A stretch of 36,386 nucleotides of DNA, taken from the NCBI GenBank assembly GCA_024692925.1, contig JAILLX010000106.1, positions 1 through 36,386 of the forward strand. Direction: 5' to 3'. This DNA is from a bacterium. GTDB taxonomy: Bacteria > Pseudomonadota > Alphaproteobacteria > Rs-D84 > CACZYB01. The position numbers and the translations under genes were made by a program. Shown in pieces: positions 1,297 to 34,222 of the stretch (position 1 is the stretch's first letter; each line of letters begins with the position of its first letter). The notes under the pieces are model-generated. The model was not told the DNA's origin. It made no database searches and saw only the letters and a list, made by a program, of their open reading frames with translations.

Positions 1297-1923
1297 TTAA
1301 CCACAACTACCAGAATATGAATAATCACATGAAGTATGACTACTGTTCACCCTGTAATAAAGCGTCCTATGTCCGGATCTTGTAACCGTACGAGTTTTAG
1401 TACATGATGTTGAACAAGAATAAGATTCTGTTTTTGTACATTCATAAGTTTCAGAACAGCTATAACTTGTTTGACCATTACCTCCACCAGCATAAGGATC
1501 ACAAGGTTTTGATCTGGTGCAAGTGGAAGGAACTGATCTAGTACAAGTACTGGAACAAGTACCAGTATATGATTCTGTTGCAGTATACGAACAACTCTCG
1601 CTTCTATTTGAACAGGTTGTACAACTTGTTGCACCATCAGTTGAAGAAAAAGTACTGCCGGTACATGCCTTGCAACTTGATGCTCCAGTTTCGTTTTGAT
1701 ACTGACCTTTTGGACATGGGGTGCAGGATGATGAACCTACTGTGGATGAGTAAGTACCAGCCGGACACTTCGTACACGACGTCACCGCCCCACCTTTAGA
1801 GTAATAACCAACAGGACATGCTGTACAATGGAAATATTTTTCTTCCTTTGGATTTGCAGAATTTGCGGTTGGTATTCCTGCGAGTATGAACGCAGAAGTC
1901 GAAATTAAATGCTTTAGTTTCAT
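1297..1923 (-). CDS. Secreted Cys/Ser/Thr-rich protein (208 aa) with four 17-aa CxxCPxGxY repeats
   Basis: ATG at 1923 is preceded by a strong SD (ttaAGGAGGaaaaacATG). The longer track ORF from 2004 has no SD. N-terminal signal peptide MKLKHLISTSAFILAGIPTANSA. Repeats: CTACPVGYYSKGGAVTS / CTKCPAGTYSSTVGSSS / CTPCPKGQYQNETGASS / CKACTGSTFSSTDGATS. The C-terminal half is rich in C, S and T. Confidence 0.75.
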   Translation of the reverse strand: MKLKHLISTSAFILAGIPTANSANPKEEKYFHCTACPVGYYSKGGAVTSCTKCPAGTYSSTVGSSSCTPCPKGQYQNETGASSCKACTGSTFSSTDGATSCTTCSNRSESCSYTATESYTGTCSSTCTRSVPSTCTRSKPCDPYAGGGNGQTSYSCSETYECTKTESYSCSTSCTKTRTVTRSGHRTLYYRVNSSHTSCDYSYSGSCG

Positions 1924-1957
1924 GTTTTTCCTCCTTAAATTAAACATTCTTTTTCTT

Positions 1958-2088
1958 GAGGGGTCGCAACTCCTCGTCATCTGAAGGACTATCCCCTCCA
2001 TCATACGAAGAACTCTCCTCGTTCGAAGGGCTAATCCTCCGTAATCCGAAGAACCACCACTCCGTCATCCTGAACTTGATTCAGGATC
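1958..2088 (-). repeat. Head-to-tail array of six degenerate 18-25 nt hairpin units (REP-like) in the leader of the Cys-rich gene
   Basis: Units on the + strand: 1958-1980 gaggggtcgcaactcctcgtcat; 1981-2004 ctgaaggactatcccctccatcat; 2005-2022 acgaagaactctcctcgt; 2023-2045 tcgaagggctaatcctccgtaat; 2046-2068 ccgaagaaccaccactccgtcat; 2069-2088 cctgaacttgattcaggatc. Each has a 4-8 bp stem. In four units the only stem mismatch is A-C on + and G-U on -. Confidence 0.6.
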
Positions 2089-8707: not shown

Positions 8708-9112
8708 TTAATCCCAACCGTCTGTATTACCCAAATTTTGGTATGTAGTAACAACAGCATTTGAATCTTCTGGATTTGCCATATATGAAACAACCCAACC
8801 TGCAACACCCAAAATTGTTAATCCAACGATAAGATAGAAAATCTTTTCCCATTCAACAGAACCTTTTTGAATTGCAGTCCAAGCATAAGCGATAAATGCA
8901 AACGCAGCCAATACAAACAAAGCATTTCTTGTTTGCATAAACAATTTTGCAGCACGCCACAAAAATGCAGTAAACGGACCAGTTTTTGCAGGAACACCAC
9001 CACCATATTGTGCATCCGCAGCCCAAACATCAACCGGTACAAATGTTAAAAGAACCAAAATTCCCAAACAAAGAAGAGTAGATTTTTTTGTTAAAAACTT
9101 GAATATAGACAT
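8708..9112 (-). CDS. TrbC/VirB2-like pilin candidate (signal peptide plus two TM helices)
   Basis: 134 aa. Long signal peptide ending VDVWA|ADAQYGGG (compare the AAA|QSAGGG processing region of Agrobacterium VirB2). Two hydrophobic helices (ALFVLAAFAFIAYAWTAI and IFYLIVGLTILGVAGWVVSYM) are separated by the short polar loop QKGSVEWEK. SD aaaaggag. Confidence 0.45.
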   Translation of the reverse strand: MSIFKFLTKKSTLLCLGILVLLTFVPVDVWAADAQYGGGVPAKTGPFTAFLWRAAKLFMQTRNALFVLAAFAFIAYAWTAIQKGSVEWEKIFYLIVGLTILGVAGWVVSYMANPEDSNAVVTTYQNLGNTDGWD

Positions 9113-10726: not shown

Positions 10727-11710
10727 TTATTCTCCTCTAAAAAAATCAATTATTTCCTGCATATCCGAAGGAAGTTTTGTTTCAAATTTCATACGTTCCC
10801 CAGTTATCGGATGATTAAATTCAATATTCTTACTGTGAAGCATTTGCCTTTTTATTCCCATAAGCAAGGAACGAACCTCTTCATTTTCAACCTGTGTAAT
10901 ATGACGTTGAGGATTTCCGTAAACACTATCCCCCAAAATCGGCGTCCCAATACTTGACATATGCACACGAATTTGATGTGTTCTTCCTGTTTCCAACAAA
11001 CATTTCACAAGTGCAAGTGGTTTGAACTTCGCCCCACTAAAAACCTCTAATGTTTCATAATTTGTAATCGCTGGTTTTCCACCATCATAAACAACAGTCA
11101 TTTCCTGTCGCGAATGAGGATTTCGTGCAATATTTTTTTCAATTCTACCACTTATTGGATTTGGCATTCCCCACAAAAGAGCATAATATTCACGCTTCAC
11201 CGAATGATTCGCAAATTGTTTTTGCATAACGGAATAAGCCTTATCAGTTTTGCATGCCATCATTGCACCACTTGTATCTTTATCAAGCCTATGCACAATA
11301 CCCTGACGACCAACATCACCACCAACACTTGAAAGTTTGCCATTACAATGATAAAGAAGTGCATTTACCAAAGTTCCACTGTTGACCCCTGCCCCCTGAT
11401 GTACAACCATACCCGCAGGTTTATTTATCACAATAATATCATCATCTTCATAAAGGATATCCAGCGGAATATTTTCAGGTTTAAGTGAAGTTTCAACTTT
11501 TTCCTCTGGTACATTCACCGAATAAATTTCACCAGTTGCAACATCGATTCGCTGACTTTCAACAGGACTATCATTTTTAGTAATAAATCCATTTTTGATA
11601 AATTGTTGAATTTTTGATCGTGAAAAATCAGGCATAACAGTTGCAAGCCACTTATCCAACCTTACCCCATTAAATTGTTCATCAACTTCAAAAGTCAAAA
11701 TATTGCTCAT
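10727..11710 (-). CDS. rluD: 23S rRNA pseudouridine synthase, RluA family (RluD-like, N-terminal S4 domain)
   Basis: 327 aa. S4 region RLDKWL. Catalytic motif HRLDKDTSG. GRTHQIRVH near the C-terminus. Confidence 0.9.
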   Translation of the reverse strand: MSNILTFEVDEQFNGVRLDKWLATVMPDFSRSKIQQFIKNGFITKNDSPVESQRIDVATGEIYSVNVPEEKVETSLKPENIPLDILYEDDDIIVINKPAGMVVHQGAGVNSGTLVNALLYHCNGKLSSVGGDVGRQGIVHRLDKDTSGAMMACKTDKAYSVMQKQFANHSVKREYYALLWGMPNPISGRIEKNIARNPHSRQEMTVVYDGGKPAITNYETLEVFSGAKFKPLALVKCLLETGRTHQIRVHMSSIGTPILGDSVYGNPQRHITQVENEEVRSLLMGIKRQMLHSKNIEFNHPITGERMKFETKLPSDMQEIIDFFRGE

Positions 11711-12174
11711 TATAATTCTACACCATCATATTCTTGTATAATATCTTTATTTGCATTAGGATTTATTTCGTGTTTTTCACATTCCGAAATATTAACCTGC
11801 ATTCTTGGAATAACACCCTGAGCAATAGACCCCTGCACACTCACAGGGCAAAGCATATATCCATCTGCCTTTGCATTTTTTGGAACAAATGCACCAATAG
11901 GTTTAGTTATATAACTAAGATAAATTTCCTTTGGTGGTTCCAAACAAAAAAGGGTAATCATATTCCGCCCAACAATAGTTCTATAATATTCCCTATTATA
12001 TTGACCATAGCATGGAAAATTAGTTAAATAATATCCCTGTGTCACATTCAAATTGTCATCACTTACAATATAGATTTTATATTGTTGATCAGATACATTA
12101 AACCAATTGCTCCACTGTGAAAAAGAAACCTTTGAAATCAGCAATCCCAAACAAAGAAAAAATATTTTTTTCAT
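11710..12174 (-). CDS. Hypothetical secreted protein (4 Cys)
   Basis: Signal peptide MKKIFFLCLGLLISKVSFSQ. Its stop overlaps the rluD start (TAATG), so the two are translationally coupled within the operon. No family recognised. Confidence 0.6.
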   Translation of the reverse strand: MKKIFFLCLGLLISKVSFSQWSNWFNVSDQQYKIYIVSDDNLNVTQGYYLTNFPCYGQYNREYYRTIVGRNMITLFCLEPPKEIYLSYITKPIGAFVPKNAKADGYMLCPVSVQGSIAQGVIPRMQVNISECEKHEINPNANKDIIQEYDGVEL

Positions 12175-12188
12175 TTATCCTCCATTAT

Positions 12189-12869
12189 TTAGATTTTAGA
12201 TTCGTCAACAAAGTCAACTTTTACCCTTGCAACCTGTGATGAAAACTTAAATACCTTAAACATAAAGTCAGTTTTTTCCAAAGGAGCCAAAGTTTTCTTT
12301 TCAATTTCCCTTTCTTGTTCCTGAAGGACTCTTTCATCACGATTTTCCAAACGGATAACAAGTTTTGGTACAGGCATTTTTTTATTTGTTGGATTATACA
12401 CAAAACCACGAATAATTATATACTCGTTTGAACCTTCCTTTGTAAGGGTAAGAGGTTTCACAATTTCAATATATAATTCTTTTGCCTTGCTACCTTTGTT
12501 TTCAGTATCAAATACATTCTGTGCATCCTTTGAAACCGAAGAATTCATAACAAATTGACTAACAATAATTATTATTGAAAAAAGCACAACTCCCATTAAA
12601 AATATAACAAAATTTTTAACCGAAAAAATCGAAAGGAAGTTTTTTAATTTTCCAGATTGAGCAGATTCGCCCTCTTCCTCTGTTAAAATAGATGGAAGTT
12701 TTTCTTCCTCATCTTTCACAGGAATATTTTCTGCAATTTTTTGACCCTTTTCAATATGTTCACTCCAAATATAGGCACATTCGGAACACTGAAATTTCAT
12801 TTCGCCATTTGAAACAGCACTATCATTAACTTCAAATTTTGTTTTACATTTAGGACATTCTATAATCAT
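12189..12869 (-). CDS. MJ0042-type zinc-ribbon protein with TM helix and DUF3426-like C-terminal domain
   Basis: MIIECPKCKTKFEVND...KFQCSECAYIW (two CxxC pairs), a central TM helix FVIFLMGVVLFSIIIIV, and a beta-rich C-terminus. It is divergent from ftsE. Confidence 0.8.
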   Translation of the reverse strand: MIIECPKCKTKFEVNDSAVSNGEMKFQCSECAYIWSEHIEKGQKIAENIPVKDEEEKLPSILTEEEGESAQSGKLKNFLSIFSVKNFVIFLMGVVLFSIIIIVSQFVMNSSVSKDAQNVFDTENKGSKAKELYIEIVKPLTLTKEGSNEYIIIRGFVYNPTNKKMPVPKLVIRLENRDERVLQEQEREIEKKTLAPLEKTDFMFKVFKFSSQVARVKVDFVDESKI

Positions 12870-14573: not shown

Positions 14574-15272
14574 ATGGAAATTGAAAAGTATAAAGAAGGC
14601 TTTAAGCCAAAAAAAGAATTATCTGAATCCGAACTTCGTGCAAAAAAATATGTGCTTTGGATTCTTATTGTTTCAGGATTGTATTTTCTCGGCTTTGTAT
14701 ATTTTGCATTGAACCTTGAATATGAACCTGCATACATAAATGAAAAGACTGATGCAATTATTGTTCTTACTGGTGAAACACGCCGTATAACTGATAGTAT
14801 TGAGGAATTAGGAAAAGGAAACTCCCCTAAACTTTTCATCTCTGGTGTTTATCTACAGGCTCCTATTTCAAAGGTAATTGATAAAACAATCTCCAATTTA
14901 CAAAAATCAGGGAAACTATCCGTATCTCCCGATTCCCTTAAATCAAAAATTTCAACTGGAAAGGCTGAAAACACAATCGAAAATGCATTGGAAAGTGCTG
15001 TTTGGGTAAAGAAAAATAATGTTGATACTGTTCGTTTAATCACATCATTTTATCATATGCCAAGATCAAAACTTCTTTTTCAAAAATATCTTCCTAAAAC
15101 GGCAATAATTTATCACCCTATTTCATTTTCACAAAGTCGTTTTACAACATTAACTAATCCACATATGCTTGGTTTAGTCTTCGGTGAATATAACAAATTT
15201 ATATTAACATACATCTGGAACCTTACTGGTTTAGAAACAAAAACGGCATTAAGAATACAAGGAGCATTATAA
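14574..15272 (+). CDS. YdcF/ElyC family (DUF218) protein
   Basis: N-terminal TM. AIIVLTGETRRI...KLFISGV and SFYHMPRS motifs are typical of DUF218. Confidence 0.78.
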   Translation: MEIEKYKEGFKPKKELSESELRAKKYVLWILIVSGLYFLGFVYFALNLEYEPAYINEKTDAIIVLTGETRRITDSIEELGKGNSPKLFISGVYLQAPISKVIDKTISNLQKSGKLSVSPDSLKSKISTGKAENTIENALESAVWVKKNNVDTVRLITSFYHMPRSKLLFQKYLPKTAIIYHPISFSQSRFTTLTNPHMLGLVFGEYNKFILTYIWNLTGLETKTALRIQGAL

Positions 15273-16003
15273 TGAAAAAAACAATTTTAATAATTCGTTC
15301 AACAATCTATTTCATTTTATTTATGATTACTGCAATAATATTTTGCATATCAGCAGTATTCACATCTGTTTTACCATCAGCAGTCACATTTACAACTGCA
15401 CGCATTTGGTGCCGAAGTGTAATGTTCCTTTTAAGGGTATGTTGCGGATTAAAGTACAAGGTCACCGGACTTGAAAATATCCCTGCTGGGAAAACAGTAA
15501 TTTTTGCATCAAAGCATCAATCTGCATGGGAAACATTTGCATATCAAATATTTTTAAGACCATGCGTTTTTATGTATAAAAGGGAACTTGCATTCATCCC
15601 ACTTTTTGGAATTGCAATGATAAAAACAAAAAACATTCCTGTAAATCGTGGCCATGGAAACAAGGAAATGATAAAAAGTTTGCGTGCAAGTTTTGCAAAA
15701 CGTCTTAAAAAATACAGTGTCATTATTTTCCCAGAAGGAACACGTACAAAACCTGGTGCTGAACCAAACTATAAATCTGGATTAAGCATAATCATCCAAG
15801 CATTAAAAGGTGTTGAAGTTGTACCTGTTGCAATGAATTCTGGTGTATATTGGCCAAAACATGGTTTCATAAAATATCCTGGAACAATCGAAGTTCACAT
15901 TCTTCCACCGATAAAGGCATCCGAACTTTCGCGTGATGAGTTCCAAACACAACTTATTAATGCGATAGAAGATGAACAAAAGAAACTTCCATTAAAACCA
16001 TAA
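15272..16003 (+). CDS. plsC: 1-acyl-sn-glycerol-3-phosphate acyltransferase
   Basis: Acyltransferase motifs SKHQSAWE (Hx4[DE]) and FPEGTR. Its start overlaps the upstream stop (TAATG). Confidence 0.88.
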   Translation: MKKTILIIRSTIYFILFMITAIIFCISAVFTSVLPSAVTFTTARIWCRSVMFLLRVCCGLKYKVTGLENIPAGKTVIFASKHQSAWETFAYQIFLRPCVFMYKRELAFIPLFGIAMIKTKNIPVNRGHGNKEMIKSLRASFAKRLKKYSVIIFPEGTRTKPGAEPNYKSGLSIIIQALKGVEVVPVAMNSGVYWPKHGFIKYPGTIEVHILPPIKASELSRDEFQTQLINAIEDEQKKLPLKP

Positions 16004-17509
16004 TCAGTAGTACCAATATCCTGATCCACACTTTATATACTCGCAACGCACATCCAATTCTGTTTTGAATGGAAGGAATGCGTTTGCATTCGTAGGATAA
16101 GTATTTCCAATAAGTTTATGTATATCAGCATATTCGTAATACAATCCACGCAACACAACAGAAAGTGGAGTTTTTTCACTAAGGTCGATACCACCAATTT
16201 TTTTAGTCTTCTCCAATAATTTTTTATTAACATCAATAACAATTATATCATTCAAATTAATAGCCGGAGCAGTACCACTCGAAGTAATATTGTAATTTAC
16301 ATTTTCCGCACCATCAATTTTTATATTACCAAACTTAAACACAACCGAACCCAAAGAACTTTTTTCACTATCAAAAGATTTTGTTGTTAAATTTGTTAAG
16401 GTCAAAACAGTATTCAAACCATCATTTAATTTTAACAAATTAGAAACAGCCAAAACAGATTGTGATGCAACATTCAAAGTTTCTGCGGTCACAGATCTTA
16501 ATTTATTACAACTATTCGTATACACATCCCCACTAAACAAACATTTTGTGACATCATTAGCATAAAGATTATTCACATTCAAATTTTTATTCAAAGACAA
16601 ACTGCGTAATCCAGAATCAGAAAAAGTCAAAGATGAAACAATCAACCCCAACGGAAAATTCAATGTATTAGATATAGTCATATCCTGATTGATTGATAAA
16701 CTACTGTTAGAAGAACCTCCCTCTGATGTTTCTCCCGGAGCAATTGTGATATTATCAAACGAAGAAGTTTTTTCAACACTGTTTCCACTTGCTAAATTCA
16801 CTGAACCAGTAAAATTAAAACTACCAACTTCCAACGAATTTGCAATATACAAATTATTGATACCATTTATATTTTTCATATTCATATATAAATCAGTTTC
16901 CATAGTTGCAGTTCCACCACCAGCCTTTCTTGAAATATATTTATATTCCTTTTTTGAAAACCCAGCCCTTACGACCAAAGAACTTGCATCAAAACCATCA
17001 CCCCACAAATTTTCAGCAACAGAAAATTGCCAACCCGGACCATAAACCATATTACTTTCTACATATCCGGCATACCCCTTGGCTTCCTTAACAATATCCC
17101 TTATCCTCATCGTAGGGATAGAAGGCTCCCCTGTTGCAAGGATTATCGCATCATAAACAGTATTGCCATTTCCATCTTTCGAAGTTTTAACTCTGATTTT
17201 ATATGTCTGACCAAGGACATTTTTCTCCTTAAAACTTTTTTCCAAACCACTATCGTATAACTCTGACAAAGAAACATTATTAATCGAAGATGATTTACCA
17301 TCCTGTATTTCAAATGTTGGATTACGTTTCAAATAATTTTCCAATGCAGTTTTAAGTTTTACCAAATCACGAACAACCATCTGGTTTCTTATTGCATCAG
17401 TCCTTTTTTTAACATTACTCTGAATAAATGGGAAAATAGCCACCATTATCGCCAACATAAAGATAACTTCTAACAAAATTCCACCACTGACATTTTTATT
17501 TTTATTCAT
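16004..17509 (-). CDS. Giant prepilin-like protein P3 (501 aa)
   Basis: N-terminus MNKNKNVSG|GILLEVIFMLAIMVAIFP: a short basic leader, Gly, Glu at +5, a hydrophobic helix and Pro at +18. The body is N/S/T/G-rich and looks beta-rich. C-terminal Cys pair CEYIKC. SD aaggaa. Confidence 0.7.
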   Translation of the reverse strand: MNKNKNVSGGILLEVIFMLAIMVAIFPFIQSNVKKRTDAIRNQMVVRDLVKLKTALENYLKRNPTFEIQDGKSSSINNVSLSELYDSGLEKSFKEKNVLGQTYKIRVKTSKDGNGNTVYDAIILATGEPSIPTMRIRDIVKEAKGYAGYVESNMVYGPGWQFSVAENLWGDGFDASSLVVRAGFSKKEYKYISRKAGGGTATMETDLYMNMKNINGINNLYIANSLEVGSFNFTGSVNLASGNSVEKTSSFDNITIAPGETSEGGSSNSSLSINQDMTISNTLNFPLGLIVSSLTFSDSGLRSLSLNKNLNVNNLYANDVTKCLFSGDVYTNSCNKLRSVTAETLNVASQSVLAVSNLLKLNDGLNTVLTLTNLTTKSFDSEKSSLGSVVFKFGNIKIDGAENVNYNITSSGTAPAINLNDIIVIDVNKKLLEKTKKIGGIDLSEKTPLSVVLRGLYYEYADIHKLIGNTYPTNANAFLPFKTELDVRCEYIKCGSGYWYY

Positions 17510-17541
17510 AAATTTTGTTCCTTTTCAAAAAAATAATCACC

Positions 17542-18957
17542 CTAATCACTTTGTTCAATTTTATTTTGATAACGATAAAGTTTTTTAGCAATAGAACCGG
17601 AATCACTTCCTGTTGTTCCAGCATCAAATTTATCCATAATACTCCAAATATTTCTAATCGAAGGATTTCCTGGAATACCATATAAATTTACATTCAAGGT
17701 CGTAGTTATTTTTCCATTTGCCAATTTTATATTTCCACTATTCGAAGAAGCATAATTATTATTAACGTTAATAACCTTTGCCCTTAGATTAGTAAGTTTT
17801 ACATTTGGAACTTCGACACGAAGTTTTGTTTGAACATTTGCACCAACAGTATCACTATCACTAAATGAATCTTCCAATCCATAAACATAAAGTCCACTAC
17901 CACCGGTCAAATTATTAAACTCCAACTCTTGCAAATCAAGTCTTCCACTCAAATCAGTCAAATTCGCAACTGTGATAATAGGTTTATACGCACCCACAGT
18001 ACCCAATAAATAAGCCGAAGTCGCACTGAAACTTGCTAATCTAAGCAATTCTCCAAAAATAATTTTTGGAACAAATACCTTTCCTTCATTTCCAAATTCC
18101 AACGACGAAGCGCCAGTATTTTCATTAAAAATAAGTGATGTGACATTCAAAAGTCCACCTATTATACCACTGTTTGCTTTAAACATACCAATTTTAAAAC
18201 TACGGCTACTATCAAAACTGGAAACAGTGCTAAGCACTTCCGCTTGCTTAACATTTTTCACATCGTGTTGTACACTAGCAGTTCCCATATTAAAATCACG
18301 ACCCATCACATTTAATTCTGAATCATCCCTATTTCTGTAAAGGTAAATAGACGAGTCATATTCATCTTCCAACAAACCATCATCAACACGCACAACCGCA
18401 ATTTTTGACCCACTCGGAGCAACAGATCCTCCAATAGTCGAATAATTTTCACCCCACTTACCATTTATTGCACAAACACAAGAATTTGTTGTACAACCTT
18501 CACACTTTTCACCATTCACAACATAACCAATATTATCTTCTACATAAAACAAAGTCTTATTAAATGCAATTGCATCCAATGGGAACGAAGTCATATCAAT
18601 TACACCATAAAGGACCATCGAATCATCTGCATTTTTTATATACTTCAAAGTAAGATGTTTTTTTATTTCTTCATCAATTGAGTCATCAAGTCCATAATTT
18701 GCCAATCCACCACCAGTCACGGCAATATTACCCGATCCAACCGGCCAATTATCCCTTTCTGATGAAGCATAAGCGGTTAAATTTTTTATAACTTGTTTTA
18801 TTTGTTTTGCAAGATTCAAATATCTTACATCTGCCAAATCCTTAAATGCAAACTGTATCACAACAGGAGTAAGCACAGCCATAATTCCCAAAACAAAAAT
18901 TACTTCCATAATAGAGGCACCCAAAACATCTTTGAATTTTTTTACTCTTTTATACAT
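17542..18957 (-). CDS. Giant prepilin-like protein P2 (471 aa)
   Basis: N-terminus MYKRVKKFKDVLG|ASIMEVIFVLGIMAVLTP (Glu +5, Pro +18). SD ggggg lies 6 nt upstream of ATG 18957. The alternative GTG at 18960 overlaps the P1 stop. Confidence 0.7.
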   Translation of the reverse strand: MYKRVKKFKDVLGASIMEVIFVLGIMAVLTPVVIQFAFKDLADVRYLNLAKQIKQVIKNLTAYASSERDNWPVGSGNIAVTGGGLANYGLDDSIDEEIKKHLTLKYIKNADDSMVLYGVIDMTSFPLDAIAFNKTLFYVEDNIGYVVNGEKCEGCTTNSCVCAINGKWGENYSTIGGSVAPSGSKIAVVRVDDGLLEDEYDSSIYLYRNRDDSELNVMGRDFNMGTASVQHDVKNVKQAEVLSTVSSFDSSRSFKIGMFKANSGIIGGLLNVTSLIFNENTGASSLEFGNEGKVFVPKIIFGELLRLASFSATSAYLLGTVGAYKPIITVANLTDLSGRLDLQELEFNNLTGGSGLYVYGLEDSFSDSDTVGANVQTKLRVEVPNVKLTNLRAKVINVNNNYASSNSGNIKLANGKITTTLNVNLYGIPGNPSIRNIWSIMDKFDAGTTGSDSGSIAKKLYRYQNKIEQSD

Positions 18958-18959
18958 CA

Positions 18960-20315
18960 CTAACCCCCATTAGTTGGCAAACCATATGTACCACCAGCAT
19001 TCAAATACAAAGTAATATAATTTTCCAATGTTGTATAATAATTTAAAATTCTATTAGAAAGGCAATCTGTTCCCTTACAAATATCACTTACTTCAGAAAC
19101 TCCTGCCAAATTCAAAATAATAGAATCCCCTTCGTTATAAGTTTTATTTCCATCAACTTCGGTATAGCTTCCTACATAAATATAACTATCTTCCAAATTA
19201 TTTGATAAATTTGACGGAGCATCCATAGTCACCGTAGAAACCGTATCCGCCTGACTTCCATCCTTTGAAACAAATGTATTTGAAACAATAGTATTGATAT
19301 TCGAAGCGATACCAGATGCATCACCATGTACATAATATCCTTTTGAATTGATTGTGGAAGTAGTAAGATCACTACCTTCAATAAAGATTTTATGCAAACG
19401 TAAATCCCCTTCGACAGTTAAATTATCAACCTGAATTTCACTATTCGTCCCAGTCATAGAAAATGGCAATTCTCCGGACAAAGAAGTAAATCCATCCGAG
19501 TTTTGATATGAAAAGCTACCTACATTACTTTTACCATTCAACACCAACGATGAAACAGACAAATCCGTTCCAATAATATTTGCCGCAGTAATTTCTTTTG
19601 CAAAAAAGTTATCCACATAATTCATATTATGACTATTCATATTCAAATCAACAATCATAGTATTTACCAATGACCCTCTTTCTACATCACCAGGCATAGG
19701 AGCCACATGCAAATAATCAGATGTAAAAAATGAATCAGTCACAAACATAAAAATCAATCCACCATTCGAAGGATTTACTTTAGTTTTAAGTGCATTAGTC
19801 AAAGCAGGTGATAAACTTAAATCACTAAGTATTGTTCCATCGGAATCCATAACCGCACCCTTATCAAACAAAAATTGCCCAATACCGTTAAGGGTCAATC
19901 TGTCAACACCACCACCATAGGCAAAAACAACCGCCTCCACACTTCCACCCGCAGACGAAACCGCGTTTTCAGCATTTTGCACAATTATCATACCATAGGT
20001 CTGACCAAAACCATTACTTGTTTTAGGAGCATCGGAACCCAAATAATCCAACAACAAATTTTTCAATGCACTACCTTCTGTGACACCAGTTTGAAGTCCC
20101 TTATCTTTTTCAAAAACTATATAAGACGAAGCCGCCTTTTGCCATTTTTCCAAATCATGCACAGCTTCTTCCCTTTGAACTTCCTCATTATACTTTTTTA
20201 TTTGGGAAAAAATCATAGGTGACATCATAACCATAAGCCCAAGCCCCAAAAGAACCTGAAACATAACGGCACCACCAATTGCTTTTTTAAAAGATTTTTT
20301 TGATAAAATTCTCAT
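18960..20315 (-). CDS. Giant prepilin-like protein P1 (451 aa)
   Basis: N-terminus MRILSKKSFKKAIGG|AVMFQVLLGLGLMVMMSP has the same register as P2 and P3, but with Gln at +5. C-terminal Cys pair CKGTDC. SD agaggga. Confidence 0.68.
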   Translation of the reverse strand: MRILSKKSFKKAIGGAVMFQVLLGLGLMVMMSPMIFSQIKKYNEEVQREEAVHDLEKWQKAASSYIVFEKDKGLQTGVTEGSALKNLLLDYLGSDAPKTSNGFGQTYGMIIVQNAENAVSSAGGSVEAVVFAYGGGVDRLTLNGIGQFLFDKGAVMDSDGTILSDLSLSPALTNALKTKVNPSNGGLIFMFVTDSFFTSDYLHVAPMPGDVERGSLVNTMIVDLNMNSHNMNYVDNFFAKEITAANIIGTDLSVSSLVLNGKSNVGSFSYQNSDGFTSLSGELPFSMTGTNSEIQVDNLTVEGDLRLHKIFIEGSDLTTSTINSKGYYVHGDASGIASNINTIVSNTFVSKDGSQADTVSTVTMDAPSNLSNNLEDSYIYVGSYTEVDGNKTYNEGDSIILNLAGVSEVSDICKGTDCLSNRILNYYTTLENYITLYLNAGGTYGLPTNGG

Positions 20316-20419
20316 TTTTCCCTCTTATATAAAATAATACACTAAAAACACAAAAAAGAAAAGTAGAAAATATGTTTTTTCTGGTGTATAATAACACCAA
20401 AATATTAATGGGGGCAAAA

Positions 20420-20962
20420 ATGGAAAACAAATTTCACAACATAAAAGTATATCAAGTAATAACTTTTCTATCTTTAATTACAATTGCCTGTCTGATTTGT
20501 TTTATTCCATTGCACCGTGCAAACAATATAAAACAGGCCCTTTATAAGGCTCGTTATAATCAAATAAAATACCTTAATGAACAAAGTCAAATTATTCCTC
20601 AAACTATAAATATTATAAAGGGACATATAATACATAATGAAAAGGCATTAAAGGATATTGTTTACATAAATATGCTTACAAAAATAAAAAGCAATAACAT
20701 AAAAGATATTTATGAAAATCAGGTAAAACTTTTTTCAATTACAAAAAATTTGATTGATAGTACAAATTCAAACTCTATGTTAAATAATAATGAAAATTTC
20801 AAAAATATAAAAACCAGATTCGAAGAAGTTTATTCCAATATGACAAAGGAGCTTAATCTTTGTAAAACAAGGACCAAGCACCTTCAAAAATATATGAAAC
20901 TCCCTATCTATAAAAATATCATAGATACAACGAACATAAATGAAATAATCTGTATTGATTAA
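20420..20962 (+). CDS. Divergent LemA family membrane protein
   Basis: ATG 20420 is preceded by ggggg. N-terminal TM. IIPQTINIIKGHIIHNEKAL resembles the LemA motif LIPNLVxTVKGYAxHEK. NENFKNIKTRFEE and LPIYKNII resemble the C-terminal LemA motifs. Confidence 0.6.
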   Translation: MENKFHNIKVYQVITFLSLITIACLICFIPLHRANNIKQALYKARYNQIKYLNEQSQIIPQTINIIKGHIIHNEKALKDIVYINMLTKIKSNNIKDIYENQVKLFSITKNLIDSTNSNSMLNNNENFKNIKTRFEEVYSNMTKELNLCKTRTKHLQKYMKLPIYKNIIDTTNINEIICID

Positions 20963-21384
20963 ATCATAGAAACGATGAAATCCAAAATTTTCTTACGTTT
21001 TTCTGGGTTTTGTAATTTCCAATATGAATTTACAAGTTCCAATGTTTCATTATCACGCATAGGATCAAATTCTATAACCTTCTCTGAAACATAACCAACG
21101 CTTGCTTCAAATTCATCGATTCCAGGAACTTCCTTTTCAAGTCCATCATAAAAGTATTGAATGTCAACTTGCAAAACCTTTGCAAGAATCAACAAACGAC
21201 TTGCACTAAGTTTTGTATTTCCACTTTCATACTTTTGGATTTGTTGAAAAGTCACACCTACCATAGAAGCAAGTTCATCTTGACTCATATGAAGCATAAT
21301 ACGGCGAAGTTTTAACCTTTTCCCGATATATACATCAATTAGTCCTGCATTCATTTCTTTCATTTCAAATTTTTTGTTTGCCAT
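20959..21384 (-). CDS. XRE-family helix-turn-helix transcriptional regulator
   Basis: LKLRRIMLHMSQDELASMVGVTFQQIQKYESGNTKLSASRLLILAKVL is a classic Cro/C1 HTH. A ~60-aa C-terminal extension follows. SD agaggtg. Confidence 0.85.
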   Translation of the reverse strand: MANKKFEMKEMNAGLIDVYIGKRLKLRRIMLHMSQDELASMVGVTFQQIQKYESGNTKLSASRLLILAKVLQVDIQYFYDGLEKEVPGIDEFEASVGYVSEKVIEFDPMRDNETLELVNSYWKLQNPEKRKKILDFIVSMI

Positions 21385-21412
21385 ATTACACCTCTTTGTA
21401 TTATTATTAATC

Positions 21413-21449
21413 GATTTCTAATTGATTTTTAAGAAATCTATCCTATAAT
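21413..21449. promoter_or_regulatory. Inverted repeat overlapping a -10-like box between the XRE gene and the HIT gene (candidate operator)
   Basis: gatttct (21413-21419) and agaaatc (21432-21438) are 7-bp arms 12 nt apart. tataat follows at 21444-21449. Confidence 0.3.
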
Positions 21450-21496
21450 ATAAATTGAAACGAAAAAAAAATCAACTAAAAAGAGAAAGAAAAAAA

Positions 21497-21853
21497 ATGA
21501 CATACGATAAAAACAATATTTTCAGCAAAATAATAAGGAAAGAAGCCCCTTCCACAACCGTTTTTGAAAACGAAAATGCTATGGTAATAAAAAATCTTTA
21601 TCCAAAAGCACCATGCCACTTACTTGTTTTACCAAAGGGTGAATACGAATCTTACACCCGATTCGGTCTACTTGCATCAGCACAGGAAAAATTGGATTTG
21701 ATTGAGGCAATAAATTTTGTAATTAAGGAATATAACCTTGATGAAAAGGGATACCGTCTTGTTGCAAATACTGGTGATTACGGTGGTCAATCAGTTCCAC
21801 ATTTTCACATCCACGTTTTGGGCGGGGAAAAACTTGCCGATTTTGGATTATAG
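21497..21853 (+). CDS. HIT-family (histidine triad) nucleotide-binding protein
   Basis: VPHFHIHVLGG histidine triad. IFSKII...VFENE N-terminal motif. The ATG at 21497 is preferred over the TTG at 21455. Confidence 0.88.
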   Translation: MTYDKNNIFSKIIRKEAPSTTVFENENAMVIKNLYPKAPCHLLVLPKGEYESYTRFGLLASAQEKLDLIEAINFVIKEYNLDEKGYRLVANTGDYGGQSVPHFHIHVLGGEKLADFGL

Positions 21854-23146: not shown

Positions 23147-23668
23147 ATGACATCTAAACACGATTATATTCAAGAAGCTGCATACTTCATTTGGCTTAAC
23201 CGCGGTAAACCAGAAGGTCAAGATTTGGAAATCTGGGACGAAGCAACAAAAATCTATGAACTTACACAAGAAGTTTTAAAACCTATTGAAAAAAAGGCAT
23301 CAAAAACTCCTGCTAAAAAAACAGTAAAAAAGGTTGCAAAAAAAGCTCCTGCCAAAAAGGCTGTTAAAGTTGTAAAAGCAGTTGCACCAAAGGTTGCACC
23401 TAAAGCAAAAGCTGTTGCTCCTAAAAAAGTTGCAGTGAAGAAAGTTGCTGTTAAAAAGGCTCCTGCAAAAAAAGTAGTTGCTAAAAAAACTGCTCCTAAA
23501 AAATCTATAAAAGTAGCAGTAAAACCCGTAGCAAAAAAAGTTGCAAAACCAACTGCTAAACCAGTTGCTGTTGCAAAAATTATACCTATGGTAAAAAAGG
23601 AAGCTCCTGCTAAAAAAGCACCTGCTCCTAAAACAAAAATTAAAATCGTTGTTGGAAGAAAAAAATAA
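23147..23668 (+). CDS. DUF2934 domain protein with long histone H1-like Lys/Ala/Pro/Val-rich tail
   Basis: The N-terminus IQEAAYFIWLNRGKPEGQDLEIWDEA matches the DUF2934 pattern (AY.lWe..G.P.G.d...W..A). About 120 aa of AKK / PKK / VKK repeats follow. Strong SD aaggagagg. Confidence 0.8.
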   Translation: MTSKHDYIQEAAYFIWLNRGKPEGQDLEIWDEATKIYELTQEVLKPIEKKASKTPAKKTVKKVAKKAPAKKAVKVVKAVAPKVAPKAKAVAPKKVAVKKVAVKKAPAKKVVAKKTAPKKSIKVAVKPVAKKVAKPTAKPVAVAKIIPMVKKEAPAKKAPAPKTKIKIVVGRKK

Positions 23669-23702
23669 TTTTCCAACCGCTTACTTTATTTATGGTTAAA
23701 TG

Positions 23703-23773: not shown

Positions 23774-26032
23774 ATGAACAAGTGTAAGAGGGAAAAAGTG
23801 AACGAGAACAAAAAACATAGTTTAAGTTTTAATGTTTTATTAGTCGCAGTAATCTGCGGTTCTTTTGTATTTTCAAACTCATCAAATGCCGCAAAAAAGA
23901 AGAAAAAAACATCAACTGTCACAACCGGTTGTATTGCATGTTTAAACGCATTTGATGCCGAAACCCTCGAATTCACAATTGACAAGGATAAATGTCCAAA
24001 GCGTCTTGCAAAATGTTATAAGGCAAACTATACCAATCAATGCGAAGGAATTATCGAAGATTGTATCGCTTATAATTGTAAAAATGCTGGCTCCTGTGGG
24101 GATGAGGCTGGCAACCGTAATTTATTTGCCGGATGCCTTAAATCCGTAAATCAAATTTTACCATTCCAATGTGCAAGTTATATCGCCGGTTATGCATCAA
24201 GCAAAGCCGAAGAAGTTAAATCTCTTCAAACTGCACAGGAAAACGCCTTAAAACAAAAACAACTTGAAGTTCAAAAGGCTGAACAAGAGGCAAAAACTGC
24301 TGCTGAAAATGCAAAGGTAAAGGCTCAACAAATTGCATCTGACACCGAAACAAAAAAGTTGCAAATTGCTGGTGAAAATGAATTAAAACTTACTCAGGAA
24401 AAGGCACGACTTGAACAGCAAGCAAAGGATGCTGAACTTGCCCGCCAGAAAAAGGAAGCACAAGAGGCAAAAAACAACAAACCTAACGTTAAATATAACA
24501 ATTTATTGAATACTGTAAAGCAGGATATTACTTCTGCAAAAACTTACACAACAAAGGCGTATAATTTGCTTGGTATCACAAAAACTAATGACCAACAAAC
24601 AAATGGTTCAGCAGTATTTTTCCCACCACAAATTATAACTGTGTCTGCACTCGCTTCTTCAACTGATGCAAAGACTCGTTCCCTTGTAAACTCAAGTCGT
24701 TATAAATCCGATCAAAATTTTGTTTGTACCAAAAATACAAAGGAAAACTTTATCAAAAACGAACTTAATAACGTTTACAACACAATCAAAAAATCACGTG
24801 ATAATCTTTCAAAGGGCATTGCCGAGATTGAGGCAACCAATGCCGATGATGAAACAACTGATACAATTTCTGAATCAAAGATTAACACACTTTACCTAAC
24901 ACAAAACAAACTTACCGAAATTATGGAAACGGTGGAAGGATACACTGCAAACCTTAAGACCTCCTGTGAAACAAGGTGTGAAGGTATGTCTTCTATGACA
25001 AATATGAGTTCGTCAATTTCATCCGCTCCAATTCAATTTGATGAAAACGGTAATATTATCGAGGAAAAGAAAACTGATGAAAACGCATATTCGTGTAAGG
25101 ATTTTGAAACATCGTCTTCTTCAAACACAACTGGATTCGCCTCAATGATTGGTGGATCATCCAATATTTCCGATATGTTTGGTGGCATTGGGAAAAAGGT
25201 GACCGAATTAACTAAGCGTACTACTGAATCTGTACTTTACACCGACCGTATTTTGGATGAGGCATTAATCGCCGTTCAAAGTGGTAAATTCGATGGTTTC
25301 TCATCATCAGATTACCCTGCAATAGACAGCTGTGTTCAATATATGGTTTTGGATATTGCACAATACACAAGTTGCACCTCAAATGTATTGGGTCAGCAAT
25401 TAACTGCTCTTTCAACTAACAAATCTAATTCAAACATAAAAACGGAATTAAGAAACAGTATCAATACCATTCTTAAAACTATAACAAGTCCTAATTACAA
25501 GGATTCCTTAGAAGATGAAAAGGTTTATTGTCAAAACCTAACAAACGGTGATAATTTATTTAATAAAGACACCAACAATAATGTTACAGGAAACAACATA
25601 ACCGCAAACAACTTAAACGATTACAATGATTTCAATACTTGTGCGTTAAGTATCACCAATGCATTGAATAAGGTTAAGGATAAAAAAGGAAAAACTGGAA
25701 TGTCAAACTTCCAAATTGCGACCGCAAACAAAGAAAACAATCTTATCTACCTTTCAAATGGTGATATGTTTACGCCTACTGATTTTGCACAAAAGAAACT
25801 TGGTTGGAAAAATGCTACATGTACTATGGTAATAATAAGTAGTTCTGGAAACAACAATATGCCTATAATGACATCTAACGGTCAGGTAATACAATTAAGT
25901 AATTCTAATACTGGTATAGATATGCTATTATCCGGTCTACAATGTGATTGTGGTAATGGTAAACATAATAATCCAAATTTCCAAAAATTAAACTCTGGAA
26001 ATTACAGCTCTGATTGTTCGGAGGAACAATAA
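23774..26032 (+). CDS. Large secreted protein: Cys-rich N-domain, ~90-aa Lys/Glu/Ala/Gln coiled coil, Asn/Ser/Thr-rich body, Cys-containing C-terminus
   Basis: 752-aa ORF. The in-frame GTG at 23798 has a better SD (gaggg plus 5 nt), and tataat (23770-23775) overlaps the ATG at 23774, so the true start may be 23798. Signal peptide LSFNVLLVAVICGSFVFSNSSNA. No family recognised. Confidence 0.7.
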   Translation: MNKCKREKVNENKKHSLSFNVLLVAVICGSFVFSNSSNAAKKKKKTSTVTTGCIACLNAFDAETLEFTIDKDKCPKRLAKCYKANYTNQCEGIIEDCIAYNCKNAGSCGDEAGNRNLFAGCLKSVNQILPFQCASYIAGYASSKAEEVKSLQTAQENALKQKQLEVQKAEQEAKTAAENAKVKAQQIASDTETKKLQIAGENELKLTQEKARLEQQAKDAELARQKKEAQEAKNNKPNVKYNNLLNTVKQDITSAKTYTTKAYNLLGITKTNDQQTNGSAVFFPPQIITVSALASSTDAKTRSLVNSSRYKSDQNFVCTKNTKENFIKNELNNVYNTIKKSRDNLSKGIAEIEATNADDETTDTISESKINTLYLTQNKLTEIMETVEGYTANLKTSCETRCEGMSSMTNMSSSISSAPIQFDENGNIIEEKKTDENAYSCKDFETSSSSNTTGFASMIGGSSNISDMFGGIGKKVTELTKRTTESVLYTDRILDEALIAVQSGKFDGFSSSDYPAIDSCVQYMVLDIAQYTSCTSNVLGQQLTALSTNKSNSNIKTELRNSINTILKTITSPNYKDSLEDEKVYCQNLTNGDNLFNKDTNNNVTGNNITANNLNDYNDFNTCALSITNALNKVKDKKGKTGMSNFQIATANKENNLIYLSNGDMFTPTDFAQKKLGWKNATCTMVIISSSGNNNMPIMTSNGQVIQLSNSNTGIDMLLSGLQCDCGNGKHNNPNFQKLNSGNYSSDCSEEQ

Positions 26033-32521: not shown

Positions 32522-32704
32522 TTGAGAAAAATTTTTGCATTATTTTTACTTATTATCGTTTCAGGTTGTGGGGGGACAATGTACGAGCCTGATCCCGTTG
32601 GTGTCGGCTATGATGCAAATGAATTAAAGATGTCACCTTGTGCTTGTATACAGATTGAAACAAAGCCGGGGTTGCCTGAATGGTTTATAGAAACAACAAT
32701 ATAG
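32522..32704 (+). CDS. Small lipoprotein (60 aa), VirB7-like in size and position
   Basis: TTG start 6 nt after a perfect SD aggagg. Lipobox IVSGC. The mature peptide is ~44 aa and contains SPCAC. It directly precedes two VirB8-like genes. Confidence 0.55.
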   Translation: MRKIFALFLLIIVSGCGGTMYEPDPVGVGYDANELKMSPCACIQIETKPGLPEWFIETTI

Positions 32705-33528
32705 AAAACACCGAAAATAAAAAGGCTGATAATCTTTCAGTATATCCTTTCACTGTGGATGTTCCATCATTCCCAGAAAGGAAGTATTTAGTTGCAATCT
32801 ACAGATTCGCAAGGATAACTTATGTTGCACTTTTTATTGCAATGATTATTGCGATTCTTACAATACTTCGTGCTTTTTCCCGTGATATTTCCCCAAGGTT
32901 TATAAAGTGGAATGATATTGAAAATAAATATCAGTATGTAAAATCATCTTACTCTCAAAAACAAACAACTCTTTCTTATTCTCAATACCTTAACGAATAT
33001 TTCATAAGGACCTATATTTCAAAAAGATTTTCTATCTCCGAAACATCTGTCACAAACTTTAACAATTGGTGTGATTGCAGTAATAAAACCGCATCAAAGA
33101 TGGGAATATTTAACACAGACGAAGAATGTTATTTATGCCAATATTCATCTTCGAAAATATATAAATCTTTCACCGATAATGTTCAAAACGCCTACACTAC
33201 TATGGCAAACGATGGCATAACAAGGACCGTTGATATTTTGGATATAACATTACAAAGTGCATATGAAACAAACCCTGAATTATCAATTGTTGAATGGTTT
33301 TTAAATAAAACAAAACCTATATCAATTACACAAACTTTTCGTGTTGATTTTATTGTAAACGAATTTAAAAATTCTAAACCTGTATCAAGGGAAGTCTTAA
33401 TCGGATTTATAACAGTAAGTGGTAATAAAACATCCCCTCAAAAACGTGGTGTGATTAATGAAAGCTATATGTTCAATCCGAACTATGATTTAATTTTAAG
33501 AAACGGAGGATTAAATGCAAAAAGATAA
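32680..33528 (+). CDS. Bitopic membrane protein, VirB8-like candidate (with CxC...CxxC insertion)
   Basis: ~45-aa cytoplasmic N-terminus, a single TM ITYVALFIAMIIAILTIL, then a periplasmic domain beginning ...SQYLNEYFIRTYISKRFSIS, which resembles the VirB8 helix-1 pattern (yF...YV..RE.y). It overlaps the lipoprotein gene by 25 nt. The start is uncertain. Confidence 0.4.
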   Translation: MVYRNNNIENTENKKADNLSVYPFTVDVPSFPERKYLVAIYRFARITYVALFIAMIIAILTILRAFSRDISPRFIKWNDIENKYQYVKSSYSQKQTTLSYSQYLNEYFIRTYISKRFSISETSVTNFNNWCDCSNKTASKMGIFNTDEECYLCQYSSSKIYKSFTDNVQNAYTTMANDGITRTVDILDITLQSAYETNPELSIVEWFLNKTKPISITQTFRVDFIVNEFKNSKPVSREVLIGFITVSGNKTSPQKRGVINESYMFNPNYDLILRNGGLNAKR

Positions 33529-34222
33529 AAAAACATTATCATTCGTTCCTCTTAAAATATCTATTGCATTGTGTCTTGTGCTAATACTATCTGCACTATT
33601 TATTGCAATATCATTTTCCGCATCATTAGAAGAAGATAATTTTAAAATTGATGGCATTGCTGTTGCCAGATTTAAAAACACAAATAACGAATTCGAAGTA
33701 ATTCCATTTAATAACGATATTCCATCAACAAGAAAACAGGAATTTATGAAAAATTATCTAAAGGAATATGTTGTAAACCGCTACACCGTATCCGGCAATA
33801 TCGAAGAAATGAATCAAAGCCTTGGTTATAACGCTCCTGATTCTTTAAATGGTGGAATTTTACTTAAATATCCAAGTTATATGGGAACGGAAAATGGGCA
33901 ACCAGTTTGGACCAGTGCATACCAGGATTTTATAAAAAATGATTTGCCTGAAATAAAGGAACTTTTGAATTCAAACACTACTCGTTCTGTCAGAATTCTT
34001 TCTGAACCAAAAAAATCCGGTGATTGGTGGAGCATTACCGTTGAATTCATATATCGCAATCCAACGACTTATTCATTATCCGTTGCACGAAAGGAAAAGT
34101 ATGAAATTCGCCTTAACATTAAATCATACGGAATAAAACAGGTTGATCAAATAAACCCATATTTCCCAGCCGGAAATGTCTTTGCAACTATAATAATTAA
34201 CATACAAAAAATAAAACTTTAA
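33515..34222 (+). CDS. Bitopic membrane protein, second VirB8-like candidate
   Basis: SD ggagga. N-terminal TM ISIALCLVLILSALFIAISF. FMKNYLKEYVVNRYTVSG resembles the VirB8 helix-1 pattern. ~235 aa is typical VirB8 size. It overlaps the upstream gene by 14 nt. Confidence 0.42.
   Translation: MQKDKKTLSFVPLKISIALCLVLILSALFIAISFSASLEEDNFKIDGIAVARFKNTNNEFEVIPFNNDIPSTRKQEFMKNYLKEYVVNRYTVSGNIEEMNQSLGYNAPDSLNGGILLKYPSYMGTENGQPVWTSAYQDFIKNDLPEIKELLNSNTTRSVRILSEPKKSGDWWSITVEFIYRNPTTYSLSVARKEKYEIRLNIKSYGIKQVDQINPYFPAGNVFATIIINIQKIKL

Follow-up and report, generated by a model that had tools for sequence, protein, structure and literature searches.

Which function can three consecutive genes for large pilin-like proteins fulfil in a genomic neighbourhood devoid of pilus assembly genes? 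This question is raised by a 36,386-nucleotide stretch of DNA, hereafter called the window, which appears to be the whole of contig JAILLX010000106.1 (GenBank assembly GCA_024692925.1) and comes from an alphaproteobacterium of the order Rs-D84. A first-pass annotation, made from the sequence alone, had singled out three minus-strand genes in its middle, here denoted P1, P2 and P3 or collectively the triad, as candidates for a novel fibre or pseudopilus system of a family that it did not recognise. We found instead that, on the evidence of their sequences, P1-P3 are divergent, anciently duplicated members of the PilV/Shufflon_N (PF04917) superfamily. We consider it reasonably likely that they form a heterotrimeric tip or priming complex of PilV-type minor pilins, the outer surface of which varies, and that this complex sits on a type IV pilus driven by a motor whose genes lie in another part of the genome.

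Prepilin-type N-termini and membership in the PilV family

The P1-P3 genes together span ~4.3 kb (Table 1), and the gene positions, N-termini, internal motif and C-terminal Cys pairs first described (CEYIKC in P3, CKGTDC in P1) all match the window sequence. The coordinates also reproduce the tight coupling of the genes. The GTG start codon of P2 overlaps the stop codon of P1 by one base, and an alternative ATG start at 18957, 2 nt past the P1 stop, would give a protein of 471 aa. A gap of 32 nt separates P2 from P3, and the plsC gene on the other strand (15272-16003, plus strand) ends directly at the P3 stop, with a spacing of 0 nt.

All three proteins start with Lys/Arg-rich leaders, which are 9, 13-14 and 14-15 residues long. 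They share the register that had been noticed at the outset, namely Gly at -1, Glu or Gln at +5, Leu at +10, Met at +13 and Pro at +18, and at the level of the sequences this agreement far exceeds chance. Conservation among orthologues underlines it: Gly9, Glu14 and Pro27 are invariant in 26 orthologues of P3 that are 31-69% identical, Gly13, Glu18 and Pro31 in 14 orthologues of P2, and Gln20 and Pro33 in 13 orthologues of P1. As for the P1 orthologues, their Gly residue is found one or two positions ahead of a conserved Ala-Val-Leu (AVL) sequence, and the cleavage register of P1, with Gln at +5 or +6, is therefore not fixed. The distribution of the +5 residue extends to a sister clade of the window clade, where Gln is present in 34/36 P1-type proteins and Glu in 32/33 P2-type and 32/33 P3-type proteins. 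The Gln/Glu/Glu split of P1, P2 and P3 is thus the same in both clades.

A profile of 82 family members, made from 25 close P3 homologues and 57 cluster representatives, aligns in register, leader included, with solved full-length pilins, such that Gly-1 and Glu+5 are matched. Its matches among PDB sequences were Geobacter PilA-N (E 3.5e-5), GspG (E 0.008) and PilA (E 0.014); the same search with a shallower profile gave no match, and only the deep profile reached the pilins. The assignment of class III, or prepilin-type, N-termini is therefore borne out by the invariant residues and by this alignment. The N_methyl profile, proposed initially as a check, did not recognise them: P1-P3 of the window gave no match at E<=1, and 2 of the 82 family members matched below threshold. 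None of the NCBIfam pilin models passed its threshold on P1-P3 either, the one match being that of the ComGG model to P3, with 19 bits for a cut-off of 40. Since curated pilin models stay below threshold on these proteins, they are labelled hypothetical in the sources. Weak matches of P1 or P2 to CotH, ToxT_N, CvfB and LdtR in Pfam and NCBIfam were dismissed as noise.

The paralogy of the three proteins, first proposed from their internal motif, was confirmed by profile-to-profile alignment with hhalign, in which the P1, P2 and P3 families align across their first 225-275 residues with 97-98% probability. Several searches then connect the family to PilV. We identified 28 homologues of P3, and the Shufflon_N model matched 6/26 P3 orthologues over residues 52-265, with two of them, P0006 (33.9 bits) and P0014 (28.7 bits), above the gathering score of 27.5 bits. 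An exhaustive profile search extended the family to 219 representative clusters at 50% identity. Among the 82 members of the wider family, 17 matched Shufflon_N, with a best E of 2.4e-37, and one relative, P0050, matched annotated plasmid pilV genes in tblastn searches. P1-P3 of the window themselves gave no Shufflon_N match at E<=1. Profile alignment with a reference PilV of 490 aa, encoded by an Enterobacter plasmid with a complete pil operon (locus L024), nevertheless reached 94.9% probability for P3 (E 4.5e-8, residues 5-291 against 4-273 of PilV), 83% for P1 (E 8.8e-6) and 67% for P2 (E 5e-5). A local search with hidden Markov models (HMMs) likewise identified P3 as the closest of the three to plasmid PilV.

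The shared internal motif of the three proteins, "DLxMNxxxI", aligns with MHTAIDMNNNNLNNV of annotated plasmid PilV and can therefore be regarded as a hallmark of the PilV family. In P3, Met203 and Ile214 of this motif are invariant. Membership in this family also changes how the size of P1-P3 is to be viewed. They had been considered as unusually large pilins, but their size is not anomalous, as PilV/Shufflon_N members themselves have 430-490 aa.

Predicted structure and variability along the proteins

AlphaFold2 modelling of P3 gave a predicted local distance difference test (pLDDT) value of 57 with 26 aligned sequences and of 78 with 82 sequences. In the latter model, a 57-residue N-terminal helix (residues 5-61) precedes a beta-sheet domain whose strands lie between residues 74 and 182, and pLDDT exceeds 90 for residues 10-180, which encompass most of both. 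The alpha-1 helix and beta-rich head that had been named at the outset as features to look for are thus seen in the model of P3. They are followed by a strand-rich middle (residues 190-420), composed of short beta strands with pLDDT of 56-80, and by a two-helix C-terminal module with pLDDT of ~90 for residues 420-470. In this model, the order of the elements is that of a pilin.

Sequence conservation follows the same division. For P3, mean pairwise identity amounts to 66% for alpha1, 51% for the head and 26% for the middle, where 22% of the positions are gapped. The RCEY..C motif of the C-terminal module is present in most orthologues. In each of the three families, conservation is lowest in the middle, with 26-30% identity and many indels, as opposed to 53-66% for alpha1; the identity of the N-terminal modules among orthologues is 46-66%. 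A conserved N-terminal part combined with a variable distal part suggests the pattern of conservation of an adhesin, as far as sequences can tell. A phage tail-fibre sequence matches the middle of P3 weakly, in the manner of a repeat (E 0.0014). A Foldseek comparison of the better P3 model with the viral structures of BFVD yielded nothing significant.

Spread of the triad and its link to a small pilin

All homologues of P1-P3 belong to uncultured Alphaproteobacteria and were recovered from metagenomes of the rumen, of faeces and of rodent, termite and human guts. The homologous three-gene cassettes that had been sought in other genomes were found, both in the window clade, where a block composed of a LemA-like gene and P1-P2-P3 is present in 13/13 species genomes, and in deeper lineages. 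In five loci from deeper alphaproteobacterial lineages (L016, L019, L021, L022 and L025), three consecutive pilin-like genes coding for proteins of 377-489 aa are found amid housekeeping genes. Using the HMMs of the window clade, 11 of 12 genes from four deep lineages were assigned as expected from the order P1-P2-P3. Translational coupling of the genes is nearly universal: at most triad loci, stop and start codons overlap or are 1-13 nt apart. In the window, the GC content of the triad (0.32-0.35) equals that of its flanks, so that there is no sign of recent import. Altogether, the sequences indicate that the triad is ancient, fixed in its order and vertically inherited on the chromosome among housekeeping genes.

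In the sister clade, the triad has a conspicuous neighbour. A gene for a classical pilin of 152 aa, with the N-terminus MKYESG/RSLIEMMGVLAIMGVL... (the slash follows the conserved Gly) and a C-terminal Cys pair, is located 2-4 kb from it. In L021, L022 and L025 the layout comprises the triad, then a gene for a 95-aa protein, dnaX, the pilin gene, ompA and skp. A scan of metagenomes identified 80 pilin loci; among the 36 that are 12 kb or longer, 35 have the triad beside the pilin. The pilin gene lies at 4946-5404 in L021 and at 10001-10459 in L022, L023 and L025, and it is also present in L026-L105. The family comprises 255 clusters with ~50% mutual identity; it is highly conserved and specific to uncultured Alphaproteobacteria. 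Contigs that carry it reach 0.93 Mb and may be near-complete genomes. Two weak matches were seen, of its profile to the type IVb (T4b) pilin TcpA (E 0.003) and of the L021 pilin to Pfam PilS (E 0.005); the match to a plasmid PilS was not significant. The sources label it "type II secretion system protein", a label that stems from generic N-terminal domain matches.

A proposed heterotrimeric tip and the alternatives to it

How might the triad work? The class III signal would insert each protein in the inner membrane, where a prepilin peptidase encoded elsewhere would cut after the conserved Gly. P1, P2 and P3 would then join in a 1:1:1 ratio via their N-terminal alpha1 helices, and the complex would prime the building of a type IV pilus, whose tip it would finally occupy. 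P1 is likely to be the apical subunit because, with Gln in place of Glu at +5, it would not depend on a salt bridge with a further subunit on top of it; P2 and P3, with their Glu5, would connect down to the major pilin. The poorly conserved, beta-rich distal halves would make up an exposed target-binding surface, the target being probably another cell. Cleavage, the heterotrimer, its location at the tip, adhesion and a motor in this genome are all parts of what we infer here. For all of these we lean, by analogy, on the tip-adhesin role of PilV, on TcpB and CofB, and on the Tip clusters of the Myxococcus Kil pilus. The initial suggestion of large minor pilins or tip adhesins is consistent with the homology to PilV.

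Several observations weigh against such a tip complex. The first-pass annotation had found no prepilin peptidase, ATPase, platform protein or secretin in the window, and Pfam scans and tblastn searches with the full IncI-type pil operon agree with this; none was found in ~1.1 Mb of DNA flanking the triad or the small pilin in ~100 related loci either. When all eleven IncI-type pil proteins were compared with 0.46 and 0.71 Mb of related loci, only relatives of PilV were detected at E<0.01. In the window and the first 23 loci, nothing but PilV fell below E 0.08, and the 80 pilin loci were searched at E<=0.01; the only other match to the pil operon was that of PilR to L014, with E 0.08. The small pilin, sought by a motif scan and with its profile, was not detected in the window or up to 10 kb on either side of the triad in the window clade. 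P1-P3 of the window reach no Pfam or NCBIfam pilin threshold. Foldseek comparisons of both P3 models with PDB found no match at E<=0.001, the minor pilin PilW of Clostridioides difficile having an E of ~1.2, so that the assignment of the P3 fold rests on sequence and topology. Finally, a paper on Rs-D84 reports type IV pili for another lineage only (PMC12306168), which is a weak negative. Four window proteins of 752, 608, 282 and 235 aa, which were checked as possible machinery components, have no family matches, and the last two have none among PDB sequences either.

The missing machinery would be explained if P1-P3 were relics, that is, pilin-derived proteins that no longer form filaments, anchored in the inner membrane by an N-terminal helix that is uncleaved or merely cleaved. 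They would then act in the periplasm or the envelope of a cell whose reduced genome has lost the pilus machine. No flank that was searched contains machinery genes, and the cassette is always found amid housekeeping or envelope genes (plsC, ftsEX, dnaX, ompA, skp, lpxD). Moreover, genomes of the order Rs-D84 are reduced (PMC12306168), type IV pili are not reported for this order, and the related Holosporales have "incomplete type IV pili" (PMC9992710). However, Gly-1 and Glu+5 are strictly kept over deep divergence, although a plain anchor would not require both. As this conservation is what peptidase recognition and packing in a filament select, it disfavours a relic, and the sister clade retains a conserved small pilin beside the triad. 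We hold a relic to be unlikely.

If the triad does cap a filament, one may ask whether the latter is a Tad (type IVc) pilus, the usual type of filament in Alphaproteobacteria, with P1-P3 as equivalents of TadE/TadF/TadG or of the KilL/M/N Tips of Myxococcus. As in Myxococcus Tip1-3, the three genes are apart from the machine, and distant relatives have TadE-like N-termini of the form RG-x-x-x-VEF-x-L. A resemblance to TadE and TadF had also been pointed out at first, but the profiles do not support it: neither the TadE-like N-terminal domain (PF07811) nor the vWA domain of TadG has a Pfam match in P1-P3 of the window or in the 82 family members. In addition, the homology that can be detected connects the family to PilV, a type IVb minor pilin, and the linked small pilin, with its 152 aa, globular domain and Cys pair, differs from Flp pilins of ~60 aa. 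A Tad tip appears quite improbable to us.

The first proposal also included a self-contained fibre, in which the three giant pilins would polymerise alone, with no separate major pilin. P1, P2 and P3 do have full pilin N-termini, and no small pilin is seen in the window or in the flanks of the window clade; but this genome is seen over 36 kb only, and in the sister clade a conventional pilin is encoded beside the triad. PilV, the nearest relative that has been characterised, is a tip protein of low abundance according to plasmid annotations and PMC9045228, and a P1 that lacks Glu5 is easier to reconcile with a cap than with a subunit repeated along the fibre. We found no support for such a fibre, and it seems very improbable.

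Just as improbable is a tip of a pseudopilus like that of the type II secretion system (T2SS), which, as with GspK-GspI-GspJ, would push substrates out instead of adhering: three minor subunits, one of them devoid of Glu5 like the apical pseudopilin GspK, weak sub-threshold matches of NCBIfam GspG-type N-terminal models to 5/82 members and the label of the linked small pilin all point that way, yet none of the GspH/I/J/K minor-pseudopilin models matches, the homology is to PilV, the label comes from generic N-terminal matches, and variable distal regions of 250 residues look like an exposed binding surface. Each of these four explanations is less well supported than a PilV-type tip.

Comparison with known systems

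Within the thin pili of type IVb encoded by IncI-type plasmids, PilV is the shufflon-encoded minor pilin and tip adhesin (plasmid annotations; PMC9045228). The triad proteins resemble PilV of the IncI1/IncI2 thin pili (R64, TP114) by their homology over the first ~270 residues, with a class III signal, Gly-1, Glu+5 and a pilin head, and by their common motif, M-x-T-x-[IL]-x-M-N-x-x-x-[IL]-x-x-V. Their sizes are similar, and both combine a conserved N-terminal with a variable C-terminal part. The differences concern the genetic setting above all. A single pilV gene belongs to the plasmid pilL-pilV operon, which also encodes a secretin (PilN), an ATPase (PilQ), a platform protein (PilR), a pilin (PilS) and a peptidase (PilU), whereas the triad consists of three fixed paralogues at a chromosomal housekeeping site. 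It also lacks the means to vary by inversion: shufflon inversion repeats sought at 15000-21500 yielded AT-rich repeats at chance level only, and Pfam scans revealed no Rci-type recombinase in the window. Furthermore, P1 has Gln at +5, and the window proteins are below the Pfam threshold.

As to how the triad works, CofB of the colonisation factor CFA/III of enterotoxigenic Escherichia coli (ETEC) and TcpB of the toxin-coregulated pilus (TCP) of Vibrio cholerae may, by analogy, be the closest model. Both are homotrimers. They are large T4b minor pilins that initiate assembly and are found at the pilus tip (PMC5207764, PMC6048534). With 420-520 aa, and a pilin domain followed by beta-rich domains, they resemble the triad proteins, and three copies cap a T4b pilus. 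In contrast to the triad, they are homotrimers whose genes are within the pilus operon, not three diverged paralogues, and we found no match to them in sequence or fold.

The Kil (Tad) pilus of Myxococcus provides a precedent for the gene arrangement, as its KilL/KilM/KilN Tips are encoded by three-gene minor-pilin clusters, several of which are away from the machine (PMC12075869). According to predictions, KilL/M/N assemble into heterotrimers by way of an alpha1 bundle, and a large, variable distal domain decides on the specificity for the target (PMC12075869). Like Kil Tips and TadE/F/G, the triad is a three-gene minor-pilin cluster, and no machine genes were found near it. The Kil Tips, however, belong to another pilin family, are of unequal sizes and are not paralogous to each other, and the organism that bears them is predatory and has a large genome. 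In GspK-GspI-GspJ and in PilV/W/X-PilY1 of type IVa pili, a few minor pilins or pseudopilins also make the tip and prime assembly; there, the homology that can be detected is limited to the N-terminal helix, the subunits have 130-330 aa, and the triad has no PilY1-like partner.

Genes reminiscent of VirB-type secretion systems were observed as well. At 8708-9112 (minus strand), the window encodes a protein of 134 aa that has two hydrophobic helices besides a signal peptide; its match to the type IV secretion pilin TrbC/VirB2 is weak and sub-threshold (Pfam E 0.0047), and the position of the gene is kept in L001. Locus L021 carries a gene for a VirD4/TraG coupling protein. Together, on sequence criteria, they hint at scattered VirB-type secretion genes. 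As a bolder speculation, by analogy with the IncI thin pilus and its conjugation machine, a pilus capped by the triad might work with such genes.

Features of the window

Table 1. The triad, its subregions and associated features in the window. Slashes follow the conserved Gly of the leader.
Feature	Position	Strand	Basis and remarks
P1, 451 aa	18960-20315	-	Open reading frame (ORF); first gene of the operon; PilV-family pilin-like; Gln at +5; proposed apical (capping) subunit
P1 class III signal and hydrophobic alpha1N, residues 1-33	20217-20315	-	MRILSKKSFKKAIGG/AVMFQVLLGLGLMVMMSP; sequence and conservation
P1 PilV-family motif, residues 218-237	19605-19664	-	NTMIVDLNMNSHNMNYVDNF; Asn218, Thr219 and Met220 invariant; aligned to the motifs of P3, P2 and PilV
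P2, 472 aa	17542-18960	-	ORF from GTG; PilV-family pilin-like; Glu at +5
P2 class III signal and alpha1N, residues 1-32	18865-18960	-	MMYKRVKKFKDVLG/ASIMEVIFVLGIMAVLTP; sequence and conservation
P2 PilV-family motif, residues 216-236 (ATG numbering)	18250-18312	-	NVMGRDFNMGTASVQHDVKNV; Asn216 and Met218 invariant; aligned to the motifs of P3, P1 and PilV
P3, 501 aa	16004-17509	-	ORF; the most PilV-like of P1-P3; Glu at +5
P3 class III signal and alpha1N, residues 1-27	17429-17509	-	MNKNKNVSG/GILLEVIFMLAIMVAIFP; sequence and conservation
P3 PilV-family motif, residues 203-220	16850-16903	-	M-E-T-D-L-Y-M-N-M-K-N-I-N-G-I-N-N-L; end of the pilin head
P3 variable middle, residues 216-418	16256-16864	-	Asn/Ser/Thr/Gly-rich, beta-rich; proposed exposed binding surface
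P3 conserved C-terminal module with Cys pair, residues 419-501	16007-16255	-	47% mean identity
Short divergent control region	20316-20407	.	Between P1 and the LemA-family gene; from sequence
LemA-family bitopic protein	20372-20962 (probable start 20408)	+	Divergent neighbour; Pfam LemA and PDB match
Zn-ribbon membrane protein	12189-12869	-	Ancestral downstream neighbour of the triad
154-aa secreted protein	11710-12174	-	Ancestral downstream neighbour of the triad

The other genes of the window, whose GC content is ~33%, have housekeeping functions: rpsA, tolB, secF, an S41 peptidase gene, mlaEF, rluD, ftsEX, plsC, genes for HIT, Smr and bactofilin proteins, metG, hemN, Ham1 and dnaB. Upstream of P1, the ATG is preceded by the Shine-Dalgarno-like sequence AAGAGGG. 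A scan of the divergent control region for promoters gave consensus-level promoter-like matches only, none of them decisive.

On the other side of this region, the flank first described as a LemA-like gene followed by an XRE regulator is as reported. The Pfam LemA model (PF04011) matches 11/14 orthologues of the LemA-like protein, with a best E of 4e-9 and a sub-threshold score of 20.1 bits for the window copy, and the family profile matches the "lemA protein" 2etd in PDB (E 7.5e-6). The best NCBIfam likeness of the XRE regulator (20959-21384, minus strand), far below threshold, is to the helix-turn-helix region of Wmk of Wolbachia phage WO (E 2.4e-13); the gene is kept in 12/13 related genomes. 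Both neighbours are specific to the window clade, and the LemA gene is not beside the triad in the deeper lineages examined.

Downstream, the ancestral arrangement is better seen in L021, L022 and L025, where the triad is followed by the genes for the Zn-ribbon protein and a protein of 148-154 aa and by that for RluD; the 154-aa proteins are homologous. In the window, the genes for the Zn-ribbon and 154-aa proteins and rluD occupy 10727-12869 and are split from the triad by ftsEX-DUF218-plsC. The genes for the Zn-ribbon protein and the 148-154-aa secreted protein, which has conserved Cys, lie at 11338-12308 in L021, 3094-4070 in L022 and 3033-3997 in L025. Going by gene order, these two proteins might be tied in function to the triad or to rluD.

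A number of other genes also caught our attention. A 235-aa Cys-rich protein (1297-2004, minus strand) contains an NCD3G-like stretch as well as Ephrin_rec_like repeats of eukaryotic type (E 8e-14), and in L002 a similar Cys-rich repeat protein is encoded directly after the triad. The 752-aa protein (23774-26032, plus strand) is secreted and Cys-rich, with a long Lys/Glu/Ala coiled coil and no family match; at the equivalent position, L001 has a 738-aa gene with no family match either. The 608-aa protein (34474-36300, minus strand) is Asn/Thr-rich and has no Pfam match, and two adjacent genes (32680-33528 and 33515-34222, both plus strand) encode bitopic membrane proteins of 282 and 235 aa with no Pfam or PDB sequence match. 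At 23147-23668 (plus strand), a 173-aa protein has a long Lys/Ala/Pro/Val-rich tail that resembles histone H1; L002 has a DUF2934 gene amid the same neighbours. An antisense ORF of 140 aa (23254-23676) almost certainly arises as an artefact of the repeat. Lastly, L018 (3584-13012; 51% GC, with flagellar genes including FlbT) encodes a 1003-aa family member with a long beta-helix-like repeat and weak DUF2345 and sarcoglycan matches. This gene comes after three large genes of unknown function, beside a fliF-fliG-fliN-flhA flagellar cluster.

What the triad may mean for its hosts

On this reading, the triad is a known machine in a novel arrangement rather than a fibre of a new type. Its novelty resides in the fixed architecture of three paralogues with the Gln/Glu/Glu signature, devoid of any shufflon or plasmid context, and in its conservation among housekeeping genes throughout a large radiation of uncultured Alphaproteobacteria. 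Several hundred "hypothetical proteins", corresponding to the 219 clusters, now find a place in the PilV superfamily. If our reading is correct, nature would provide in the triad a heterotrimeric equivalent of the homotrimeric tips made by CofB and TcpB, and the Gln/Glu/Glu asymmetry could reveal the order of the subunits at the tip.

The bacteria that carry it are uncultured, low-GC Alphaproteobacteria of gut and rumen, and sister-clade contigs of 0.85-0.94 Mb suggest that their genomes are small. They are probably members or close neighbours of Rs-D84. Bacteria of this order are predicted to depend on partner cells, and how they find and hold such partners is a question on which the triad bears: with three PilV-like genes of 450-500 aa retained at a fixed site, it is a concrete candidate for an attachment device. 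It is tempting to speculate, although we regard this as tentative, that the triad is a clade-defining, vertically inherited heterotrimeric tip of the PilV type, by which very small, metabolically dependent gut Alphaproteobacteria might recognise partner cells and cling to them, in a manner comparable to the type IV pili behind the episymbiosis of Saccharibacteria, with the variable middles of the three proteins setting the specificity.

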